23,641 nucleotides of DNA, from the IMG/VR virus record IMGVR_UViG_2703718795_000013, positions 1-23,641 of that record; one strand, 5' to 3'. Positions 18,084 through 21,000 of this stretch are shown piece by piece (the first letter of the stretch is position 1; each line of letters opens with the position of its first letter). A program made the position numbers. The stretch is from a virus (Duplodnaviria > Heunggongvirae > Uroviricota > Caudoviricetes).

Positions 18084-21000
18084 GTTAGAGTCTTTCAGTC
18101 TGCGATGATGGGAAATCCCGGAGTGACTGAAAGACGTTTAAGTTATGAATGATCGCTTTTTTTTGCAAAATTGTTGTGCAGAAATACTAACTTTCGGGCA
18201 GGCGATCATTCATAAGCACTCTGCTTTTATTCCGATTAACTGTGGGTGGTTTGTTGGATAGAGTGCTTTCCTTACTGTATATATCGTTTCGCCCGCTTTT
18301 GCGGGCTTTTCTTTTCAAATCCCTTTCATTTCTCAGTGTAAAACTACGCCATCCGTTATTTGCGGAGGTGAGGCTATGAAATCCATGGACAAAATTTCAA
18401 CGGGCATTGCCTATGGCACCTCCGCAGGCAGTGCTGGCTACTGGTTTTTACAGTGGCTTGATCAGGTCAGTCCGTCACAGTGGGCTGCGATTGGTGTACT
18501 GGGGAGTCTGGTTCTGGGCTTCCTGACTTATCTGACAAATCTGTACTTCAAAATCAGAGAAGACAAGCGTAAGGCTGCACGGGGAGAGTAATTCAATGAC
18601 TCAAAACTATGAACTGATTGTGAAAGGGATCCGCAATTTTGAGAATAAAGTTACGGTAACTTTAGCGTTACGGGACAAAAAACGCTTTGACGGTGAAATT
18701 TTTGACCTGGACATCTCGCTGGACCGTGTTGAAGGTGCCGCGCTGGAGTTTTATGAGGCAGCAGCCAGAAGGAGCATCAGACAGGTCTTCCTGGATGTTG
18801 CTGCCGGGTTATGTGAAGGGGACGAGCTGTTGCCAGAAACGCGCCCCTGTTCAGAGGCGCGGTATACCATAAAAATTAACAGTTCTGATAACTCGATTAC
18901 GGGTTGTTAGCTTTTTGCAGTTGGCTTTCCAGTATCTTTCATTGGTAGCATCCTGATAAATATCCATGAGCGCAAAAATCAAATACGGCCTGTCAGCTGC
19001 TGTTCTGGCGCTGATTGCTGCAGGCGCGTCTGCTCCTCAAATACTTGACCAGTTTCTGGATGAAAAAGAGGGTAACCACACTACGGCATACCGCGATGGT
19101 TCCGGTATATGGACCATCTGTCGTGGTGCCACAATGGTGGATGGTAAGCCCGTCATACCGGGAATGAAGCTGTCGAAGGAAGAATGCGACCAGGTTAACG
19201 CTATTGAACGTGATAAGGCGCTGGCATGGGTGGAGCGCAATATTAAAGTACCACTGACCGAACCACAGAAAGCGGGTATAGCGTCATTTTGTCCCTATAA
19301 CATTGGCCCCGGTAAGTGTTTCCCGTCGACGTTTTATAAGCGGCTGAATGCCGGTGATCGTAAGGGTGCATGCGAGGCGATTCGCTGGTGGATAAAAGAT
19401 GGTGGGCGCGATTGCCGCATACGTTCAAATAACTGCTATGGACAGGTTATTCGCCGTGACCAGGAAGCGGCACTAGTGTGCTGGGGTATCGACAGCTAGC
19501 AGAATATTTTGCTGAAAAATGGCGTGTGCTCCCGCGAGCGGATAACACGAAATCCTGCAAACTGGCAAAAGGTAAGTGAATAAAAGTAAAACCCCGGCTG
19601 GGGGAACAGTCCGGGGTTGCATTTTGACAAATCAGACATGGATATAATTCATGCAGGTAAAGGATAACAATAAAACCTTTCTGAGTATAGGGTGCAGTAT
19701 GACACCTAAAGCAGCAAATATTGCCGGAATTATTCTTGCATTATCGGCAATGATCGGGGCAATTGGTTTTGCGGTTGCAGCGATAGCATATGTTTGTAGA
19801 TAAGACAGAAAATACGGCGAATCTCTGCCTTATCCGGGCGGTGGCTTTTGCCATTAAGTGGGTGGCGGTTGGCATCGCCGTGTCTCCGATGCTGTATGGG
19901 CTGGCAAAATTGATTGTTGTTCTGAAATCGTGAGTGGTGATGGGTGTCATGAGGGACATGGCAACTGATGATAAAAGCAGAAACAACTTCGCAGGGTGCT
20001 GACGATGCCGCAAAAATCATCGCGGTATGCCGGGGCATCAGACATATACTGACGCCAGTTGCATGGATTATTTGTACTGCACTGGTTGCATACACAACAA
20101 TTTATTTAAACAGATGAGTGCTGATTTTATTCGGGCAACGGCCTTTGCAATTCGCCTTGTGGCGGTCGCTGTTCTGGTCTGGGCAATCCGTTGGTGGTGA
20201 TATGAACCGTGTTCTGTATGTAGTGATTGCTATGCTGCTGGTGGCATGTGTTGTGCTTAGTCTGGGGCTGAATCATTACCGTGATAACGCCATCTCCTAC
20301 AAAGAGCAGCGTGACAAAAACGCCAGAGAGTTGAAGCTGGCGAACGCCACCATCGCTGACATGCAGCAGCGTCAGCGTGATGTTGCTGTGCTCGATGCAA
20401 AGTACTCGAGAGAATTAGCCAATGCGAAAGCTGAAAATGAAACTCTGCGCGCTGATGTTGCCGCTGGTCGTAAGCGCCTGCGGGTCAATGCCAGTTGCTC
20501 CGCAGCCGTGCGTGAAGCCACCGGACCCACCCGCGTGGATAATGCAACCAGCCCCCGACTGGCAGACACCGCTGAACGGGATTATTTCACCCTCAGAGAG
20601 CGGCTGATGACGATGCAGATGCAACTGGAAGGGGCACAGGAGTATATCCGCACTCAGTGCATTAAGTAGCCTTTTTATCGTGGTAAACATTTCGCAGGGT
20701 ATGAGGTATTTATGCCATCACTAATTCCACGTGCCTGCCGTAAGCGTGGATGTGCAGGTTCAACCACAGACAGTTCTGGTTACTGCGATAAACATCGTGG
20801 CGAAGGATGGGTACAGCATCAACGCGGACTGAGTCGCCACCAGCGTGGCTATGGCTCGAAATGGGATGCCATACGTGCGCGTATACTGAAGCGTGATAAT
20901 CATCTGTGTCAGAACTGCCTGCGCAATGGGAGAGCCGTTGAAGCCAGAACTGTGGACCACATCATTCCGAAAGCTCATGGTGGCACAGATGCAGACAGTA

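Follow-up and report, generated by a model that had tools for sequence, protein, structure and literature searches.

Lysis of Gram-negative hosts by phages is usually described with three functions, namely those of holin, endolysin and spanin. In phage P2, the gene of a non-essential membrane protein, LysA, is located between the endolysin and spanin genes, and LysA is thought to tune the timing of lysis. Accessory holin-like proteins of phage P1 (LydB/LydC/LydD/LydE-type) have been reviewed (PMC9025707). The locus analysed here is the interval between the endolysin gene R and the i-spanin gene Rz of an Escherichia coli lambdoid prophage (IMG/VR record IMGVR_UViG_2703718795_000013, positions 1–23,641; this whole stretch of 23,641 nt is referred to as the window). 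A region of 801 nt around the interval is 99.6% identical to approximately 30 chromosomes, mostly of enterotoxigenic strains. The interval is a mosaic accessory cassette, which consists of a terminator and four genes for single-pass membrane peptides belonging to three unrelated families. The four open reading frames (ORFs), designated A, B, C and D, are uncharacterised yet already catalogued small phage genes and do not represent a new kind of system. The coordinates of all features are summarised in Table 1.

The last base of the R stop codon and the Rz start codon are separated by a gap of 702 nt (19500–20201), which contains a hairpin and four plus-strand ORFs of 34 (A), 47 (B), 49 (C) and 28 aa (D). 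The original prediction, made from the sequence alone, had described an endolysin–Rz insert of about 700 bp carrying three mini-ORFs of 34, 47 and 28 aa. The insert was borne out, with both flanking genes confirmed by Pfam, and all three ORFs are present. A fourth one, ORF C, had been overlooked, as had the upstream terminator and the membership of the ORFs in catalogued uncharacterised families, which shows that the insert is not a local oddity. Indeed, the NCBI Prokaryotic Genome Annotation Pipeline (PGAP) already lists three of the gap ORFs in sister genomes as ‘hypothetical protein’ (WP_001197231.1, WP_000496062.1 and WP_085950722.1). A single hydrophobic stretch was found in each of the four peptides (Kyte-Doolittle mean of 1.9–2.5 for the best 17 residues), in line with the predicted single transmembrane (TM) helix per ORF. 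AlphaFold2 predicts B and C as one long helix each, comprising residues 3–46 and 8–48, with predicted local distance difference test (pLDDT) scores of 78 and 81, respectively.

The spacing of R and Rz was determined in a sample of 80 IMG/VR loci retrieved by the Rz protein alone, of which 76 contain both genes. Compact cassettes with a gap of at most 2 nt make up 51 of the 76, in agreement with the earlier statement that lambdoid cassettes usually run without a gap. An insert of 301 nt was found in 14 cassettes and the A-B-C-D insert of 701–702 nt in 11. R and Rz are also compact in the Qin prophage of strain K-12. The occurrence of cassettes without insert indicates that the gap is a true optional insert and that the peptides are not essential for lysis.

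Relatives of B and D were collected by scanning IMG/VR with a frame-neutral degenerate back-translated motif (AFAI[KR]xVA...), yielding 120 loci, and substitutions were measured outside the motif. The selection sets for A and C consisted of homologs from a protein search together with their DNA. The ratio of non-synonymous to synonymous changes (pN/pS) was found to be 0.17 for the 34-codon core of A and 0.15 for C, with variable sites at the three codon positions numbering 6/6/21 and 15/8/41, respectively. For B, we obtained values of 0.28 (9/2/11) in the C-terminal half and 0.16 (10/2/18) over the whole TM segment. D-type ORFs yielded 0.22 (8/2/12) in the TM segment and 0.04 (3/2/16) upstream of it. 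The plus-strand frames are open in 4/4 variants of A, 23/25 of B, 8/8 of C and 19/19 of D. Where the DNA is conserved in relatives the frames are kept, apart from rare frameshifted copies. With synonymous exceeding non-synonymous changes and frames kept in divergent relatives, the claim that selection rather than chance maintains the ORFs is supported for all four, including the one added here. A, B, C and D are genuine genes under purifying selection in their annotated frames.

The same measures were used to judge longer readings of the ORFs. PGAP calls A as a 50-aa protein starting at position 19651. The 16 codons upstream of the 34-codon core show a pN/pS of 0.59 and variable sites of 7/7/7, and they are not conserved. 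This lack of a coding signature supports the 34-aa reading, and the PGAP call is probably too long. A 57-aa extended reading of D was rejected since its upstream codons are likewise not conserved and lack a coding signature. On the minus strand, a 121-aa ORF spans A, B and C and shares third codon positions with these genes. It was rejected as a gene because it has no Shine-Dalgarno (SD) sequence, its pN/pS is always above that of the plus frame, and it is broken in the divergent relatives L130 and L131 (loci are given by L numbers), in which the plus frame is open. The minus-strand ORFs had already been regarded as non-coding in the original prediction. The antisense frame remains open since stops are rarely found opposite hydrophobic codons, and hydrophobic coding strands in general tend to keep it open. 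False gene calls are likely to arise from this antisense ORF.

ORFs B and D belong to one paralogous family. Their proteins share 11/18 residues (E 9e-5) and their DNA features a 40-nt repeat with 70% identity. They also match common PHROG families, and forms intermediate between the two subtypes were found by an exhaustive hidden Markov model (HMM) search; the relatedness of the 47-aa and 28-aa peptides noticed beforehand is thereby confirmed. Full-length relatives match PHROG 1115/4493/3246 with E-values of 1e-42. B and D of the window are shortened versions, and their matches to these profiles are confined to the C-terminal TM part. A typical member is 37–48 aa long and reads MKNGLE..AP...... 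followed by the TM segment. B-type proteins end in ...SPMLYGLAKLVIALKS, while D-type proteins end in ...VLVWAIRWW. In the window, the N-termini of both are replaced and shorter, and such forms recur in many loci. The family comprises 85 clusters at 90% identity, all of them annotated as ‘hypothetical’. The exhaustive HMM search of 1.84 billion representatives yielded just 18 clusters at 50% identity, indicating that the family is narrow (enterobacterial). Named entries are nearly all from E. coli or Salmonella, and one partial record is labelled Pseudomonas aeruginosa. A tblastn search with B, a short, low-complexity query, matched only 12 records among the GenBank phages. Genes that are B/D hybrids (L091), and fusions with adjacent ORFs, point to frequent recombination among the modules.

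ORF A matches phrog_12997 with E-values of 5e-7 (50-aa form) and 7e-5 (34-aa core), and its homologs are located in tail regions of Citrobacter and E. coli. As a tblastn query against the GenBank phages A is short and of low complexity, and no match was found. ORF C belongs to a family with 29 relatives of 49–65 aa, in which the motif CRGIRHILTP is conserved ahead of the TM segment. Comparison of C with PHROG yielded a weak, non-significant match only. Neither A and C nor C and B/D could be aligned by BLASTP, and hhalign gave a probability of 0.4%. We considered that the insert is a duplicated two-gene module of the type [A-B][C-D]. This was rejected, since A and C are unrelated to each other and to B/D, so that B and D are the sole paralogs.

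In 127 motif-bearing loci, B/D genes were found with R21-type lysozyme and Rz (82 loci), with M15 peptidase and a gene here called Lpp60 (20 loci) or with GH108 endolysin and Lpp60 (10 loci). Most of the remaining loci are cut by contig ends. In nearly all of the 127 loci that reach both flanks, B/D are located between the endolysin, which belongs to one of three unrelated classes, and Rz or Lpp60. Among 5426 complete E. coli genomes, 1587 (about 29%) contain B-type coding DNA, in up to seven copies each; it is also carried by prophages of O157:H7. The small peptides co-occur with at least three holin types. A and C occur elsewhere as well. In a Citrobacter prophage (L129, 2501–2844), A followed by C is located between baseplate genes, with the same upstream hairpin. 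In E. coli (L130, 731–883), A follows a tail-fibre gene at the prophage end, next to host genes, and is flanked by two similar hairpins. In tail-fibre regions of Salmonella (L131, 3001–3156; L137), C is located in front of DUF1353. A hok gene was observed approximately 2 kb downstream of the C module in L131. C can also be part of a lysis cassette with another endolysin, as in L134, where C-B-Rz follows an M15 endolysin.

Further families of small TM proteins, designated E and F, occupy the same slot (L003, 612–1077; L005, 1717–2045; L174). E is 43 aa long (MSDKLIT...), has a strong SD sequence and belongs to phrog_4906, while F has 31–32 aa and belongs to phrog_6632. The architectures observed include R-F-B-E-Rz, R-F-E-B-D-Rz, R-F-D-Rz and D-Lpp60, with R-A-B-C-D-Rz being rarer. 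In-frame fusions of E with B (83 aa) and of C with D (77 aa) are present in the databases. Lpp60 is a predicted lipoprotein of 60 aa, with the sequence MTRKHWTHRMPR...FLLVGC followed by a Cys-containing mature part of approximately 30 aa, and belongs to phrog_7528. It was found in the spanin position right after a D-type ORF in phage phiSTEC1575-Stx2k (L008, 1870–2052) and in more than 30 IMG/VR loci (e.g. L014, L091 and L107). Cassettes with Lpp60 have M15 or GH108 endolysins and lack Rz/Rz1. Lpp60 could be an unrecognised outer-membrane lysis factor.

The ORFs of the window form a closely spaced chain up to Rz: B starts 14 nt before the stop of A, C and D overlap by ATGA and the stop of D is located 1 nt before the ATG of Rz. 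SD:anti-SD pairing has an appreciable free energy (dG) for C (−6.1 kcal/mol) and Rz (−6.2 kcal/mol), is weak for A (−3.9 kcal/mol) and, with −2.4 kcal/mol, amounts to no SD sequence for B; D lacks one as well. Since B overlaps the end of A and has no SD sequence of its own, its translation is likely coupled to that of A. D would be coupled to C in the same manner. The last codons of D (TGGTGGTGA) encode RWW and the stop and double as the SD sequence of Rz. All D-type ORFs with downstream flank on the contig end in CG(T/C)TGGTGGTGA-n-ATG, and F-type ORFs can end in the same RWW-stop junction before Rz.

The junction is linked to the allele of Rz. It is located upstream of 26/26 Rz alleles that start with MNRVL, and of 0/54 compact alleles that start with M/VSRV, all of which overlap or directly abut the endolysin stop (loci L138–L217). 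The compact cassettes show a similar coupling of Rz to R. The association of the MNRVL allele with the peptides may reflect either linkage or co-adaptation of the N-terminal TM segment of Rz with the peptides.

The endolysin gene is followed by a non-coding spacer of approximately 85 nt, which is kept in related cassettes, partly even behind the unrelated M15 endolysin of L134, and is 86.6% identical to Stx phages. The spacer ends in an intrinsic-terminator-type hairpin with a dG of −22.3 kcal/mol (z −4.4), which was also listed by a terminator scan. The same kind of hairpin was found upstream of the small-ORF cluster in every context examined. Its stem is kept in nine homologous copies from different contexts, with compensatory changes in 8/13 pairs. 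The spacer could be a 3'-untranslated-region-derived RNA. A search of the window against Rfam, using gathering and permissive thresholds, recovered two tRNAs outside the gap and only noise within it, and no family matching the small RNAs (sRNAs) AgvB/AsxR was found in the window. The Pas sRNAs were rejected as gap content because they are located upstream of the holin gene, outside the gap.

A scan of both strands between positions 18200 and 20800 for the sigma-70 consensus revealed no promoter-like site. The hexamers TTGACA (19624) and TATAAT (19643) were rejected as a promoter, since their spacer is just 13 nt and the pair is not conserved in relatives. The Q-antiterminated late transcript from pR' of lambdoid phages reads through terminators. 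With a terminator upstream and no sigma-70 promoter found, the peptides would be made only on this late readthrough transcript, alongside holin, endolysin and spanin.

Searches of Pfam, NCBIfam, PADLOC and PDB sequences with all peptides and family profiles yielded no match. The PHROG families of A, B/D, E and F are all of ‘unknown function’. No mention of the ORFs was found in literature on lysis cassettes, small membrane proteins, DUF1327/YdfR, prophage sRNAs and ribosome profiling of enterohaemorrhagic E. coli (including the supplements of PMC5597208). We compared the peptides with the defining features of known classes. Like holins, they are small proteins with at least one TM segment next to an endolysin, having one helix each and being encoded directly downstream of R. 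A charged hydrophilic C-terminal domain is absent: the tails behind the TM segment have 2–7 residues and a net charge of +1, compared to 18 residues and +3 for the cassette's own holin. No holin family of Pfam was matched, and the only holin-labelled match was that of A to phrog_526 (E 0.04–0.06). Spanin features are lacking, as the peptides have no lipobox and at most 3–7 residues beyond the TM segment, and Rz and Rz1 are separately present.

As in type I toxin-antitoxin (TA) loci, the peptides are small and hydrophobic (28–49 aa, single TM segment). Of an antisense or adjacent sRNA gene with its own promoter and terminator, the terminator alone is present. In the manner of a moron, the gap adds DNA between genes that adjoin each other in relatives; no sigma-70 consensus promoter was seen, and the terminator is located upstream rather than downstream. 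The locus lacks at least one testable defining feature of each of the classes holin, spanin and type I TA system, and it appears to lack one of the classical moron. Stops that abut or overlap the next start are typical of coupling upstream ORFs, but a peptide free of constraint, which this class would also imply, is not observed (pN/pS 0.15–0.28).

Based on these results, the reading we favour, with a rough probability of 0.45, is that A–D encode late co-expressed accessory inner-membrane peptides that tune the membrane step of lysis. Late in infection, the peptides would enter the inner membrane and alter the timing or efficiency of this step, e.g. holin triggering or loss of the membrane potential, while being dispensable for lysis itself. 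This is suggested because B/D are tied to the endolysin–spanin junction with three endolysin classes, are co-translated with lysis genes and are dispensable. The case appears strongest for the B/D family, which is found in lysis cassettes wherever the flanks are readable. A and C are portable modules that also occur in tail regions and may serve another late membrane function. The original prediction had listed lysis-timing modulators, membrane toxins and superinfection-exclusion peptides as candidates, a choice that the present evidence narrows.

Several observations weigh against tuning of lysis or against the data behind it. A and C also occur outside lysis cassettes. B/D are indifferent to the holin class, the endolysin class and the downstream gene, which makes a specific protein partner within the cassette less likely. 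No homology-based evidence of function was found in Pfam, NCBIfam, PADLOC, PDB or PHROG. The pN/pS values were obtained from few, phylogenetically non-independent sequences, and fairly low values (0.24–0.41) were also obtained for the antisense frame with shared third codon positions. The promoter scan covers the sigma-70 consensus alone, so that a weak or non-canonical promoter could have escaped detection. Finally, B and D of the window lack the usual MKNG... segment at their N-termini, and these copies could be partly degenerate. A bolder proposal is that B/D are a dedicated, unrecognised lysis-cassette component, universal and independent of holin, endolysin and spanin type, and that the terminator-plus-peptide modules of A and C are mobile late-gene membrane effectors. 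In such a case B/D might prime membrane depolarisation or have a host envelope factor as target, immediately ahead of the action of spanin or lipoprotein. We regard this proposal as doubtful.

The main rival to lysis tuning is that the peptides are portable, moron-like passengers at terminator-marked junctions of late operons, with another envelope role such as superinfection exclusion or that of a selfish membrane toxin. The occurrence of A and C with the same upstream hairpin in tail and baseplate regions (L129, L130, L131 and L137) favours portable accessory or exclusion-type genes. The free shuffling, fusion and recombination of modules fits this as well, as does the function of related cassettes without peptides. 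The position of B/D between endolysin and Rz/Lpp60 in nearly all sufficiently long loci of the 127 favours a lysis-linked role instead, the insert has no detected promoter of its own and its terminator is upstream rather than downstream, and no defence-system model was matched; we consider a passenger role rather unlikely. The translational junctions suggest another explanation, according to which the ORFs mainly carry ribosomes across the insert and set the level of Rz/Rz1, with the peptides as by-products. The SD sequence of the next gene always contains the stop of D (or F), which is followed by the ATG after 1 nt, compact cassettes couple Rz to R likewise, and B and D have no SD sequence. 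Purifying selection acts on all four peptides, however, three of which (A, B and C) have ORFs that do not adjoin Rz, and conservation of the peptides extends to contexts that lack Rz, which makes a pure coupling device improbable.

Decay of the cassette in this prophage, with B and D as N-terminally truncated, nonfunctional remnants of 37–48-aa genes, would account for the missing SD sequences and for the loss of the MKNGLE.../MKGIEVE... N-terminus that most relatives have. Against this, short forms with intact frames recur (MSA[DE][FL]IRA..., for example, is found in over 30 loci), 31 E. coli genomes carry the A-B-C-D array with 99% conservation and the TM parts of B and D are still under selection, and we think that decay is hardly probable. 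Tandem small hydrophobic ORFs downstream of a hairpin whose better T-run is on the minus strand (TTTTACTTTTATT) are also reminiscent of a type I TA-like locus, in which an antisense RNA ending at a bidirectional terminator upstream of A would silence the hydrophobic toxins. This is very improbable: no promoter-like site was detected on the minus strand and no Rfam match above noise, and conservation is lowest in the leader that separates the hairpin from A (7/7/7). With pS at about 0.5, synonymous sites change freely, so that an overlapping RNA under conservation is hard to accommodate. The failure to find a promoter or antisense RNA speaks against a type I TA module, and also against lysogenic expression.

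The genes around the gap are those of a lambdoid lysis region (Table 1). The N-terminus of R is hydrophobic, Ala/Gly-rich and, by inspection, similar to that of signal-anchor-release (SAR) endolysins; in genomes with 99.6% identity the gene is labelled as rrrQ lysozyme. The DUF1327/YdfR gene is a further non-canonical passenger of the lysis cassette, located in the holin–endolysin interval, and longer versions of 114–169 aa are found in relatives. In a relative with 99.6% identity, four tRNA genes (Ile, Lys, Thr and Gly) were observed between Q and S. The HNH endonuclease and small terminase genes downstream of Rz represent the usual HNH–terminase pairing of cos-type phages.

Table 1. Position of the gap features and flanking genes in the window
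Feature	Positions	Strand	Remarks
tRNA-Thr(TGT), tRNA-Gly(TCC)	17930-18083		just upstream of the holin gene
Class II (phage 21 S-type, P21-type) holin	18376-18591	+	Pfam PF04971, E 1e-35
DUF1327/YdfR gene	18596-18910	+	Pfam
Endolysin R, phage lysozyme	18966-19499	+	Pfam PF00959 (Phage_lysozyme), E 6e-25
Non-coding spacer after R stop	19500-19582	+	aligned with related cassettes
Intrinsic-terminator-type hairpin	19583-19627	both, in form	A-rich 5' flank, T-rich 3' flank, GC-rich stem
ORF A, 34 aa	19699-19803	+	MTPKAANIAGIILALSAMIGAIGFAVAAIAYVCR; single TM segment, Ala/Gly-rich
Antisense ORF, 121 aa (rejected)	19730-20095	-	spans A, B and C
ORF B, 47 aa	19790-19933	+	B-type AFAI[KR]xVA member; phrog_1115/4493/3246, E 3e-18, 4e-14 and 2e-13
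ORF C, 49 aa	19968-20117	+	tail-anchored helix; conserved CRGIRHILTP, then TM segment
ORF D, 28 aa	20114-20200	+	D-type paralog of B; phrog_4493/3246, E 2e-6 and 2e-5
TGGTGGTGA	20191-20200	+	RWW-stop of D and Shine-Dalgarno sequence of Rz
i-spanin Rz (MNRVL allele)	20202-20669	+	Pfam PF03245, E 5e-50
Rz1, embedded in Rz	20422-20607	+	Pfam PF06085, E 1e-18
HNH endonuclease gene	20712-21062		directly before the small terminase subunit
Small terminase gene	starts 21211		

A family of membrane peptides of 28–60 aa at the endolysin–spanin junction, which is common in E. coli and Salmonella lambdoid prophages, is positioned like a fourth component of the cassette. Its absence from K-12 and the model phages is probably the reason why it has not been studied. 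If the peptides do tune lysis, they would be an inexpensive and testable extension of the lysis paradigm and relevant to the release of Shiga toxin (Stx) phages, as O157:H7 prophages are among the carriers. If they do not, the locus would be a clean example of terminator-flanked micro-genes that move between junctions of late operons. Either way, prophage ORFs shorter than 50 aa that are automatically labelled ‘hypothetical protein’ can represent genuine genes.

Among known systems, direct membership by HMM is given for PHROG 1115, 4493 and 3246 (B/D), 12997 (A), 4906 (E) and 6632 (F). P2 LysA and the P1 Lyd proteins resemble the locus in that a membrane-protein gene is located inside the lysis cassette, in the endolysin–spanin interval. 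LysA is larger and has several TM segments, whereas the window encodes four one-helix peptides of 28–49 aa from three families, which share no sequence similarity with it. Antiholins (lambda S107, phage 21 S21-71) are likewise small inner-membrane products of the late transcript and modulate the time of holin triggering. They are alternative-start products of the holin gene, while A–D are separate genes downstream of the endolysin gene, and a charged cytoplasmic tail is almost absent from their products. Type I toxins (Hok, Ldr, Ibs, TisB and ZorO) are hydrophobic single helices of 20–50 aa, sometimes present as tandem paralogs and often prophage-borne. The peptides of the window differ from these in sequence, are encoded co-directionally in the operon and have no detected antisense or divergent sRNA gene or promoter of their own. 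Morons (bor, lom; HK97 gp15) are extra DNA between otherwise adjacent genes and encode envelope proteins, and their sites, behind the lysis genes and within the tail-fibre region, parallel those of A and C. Their own promoter drives transcription in the lysogen, and their terminator is located downstream, whereas the R–Rz insert has its terminator upstream and no detected promoter.

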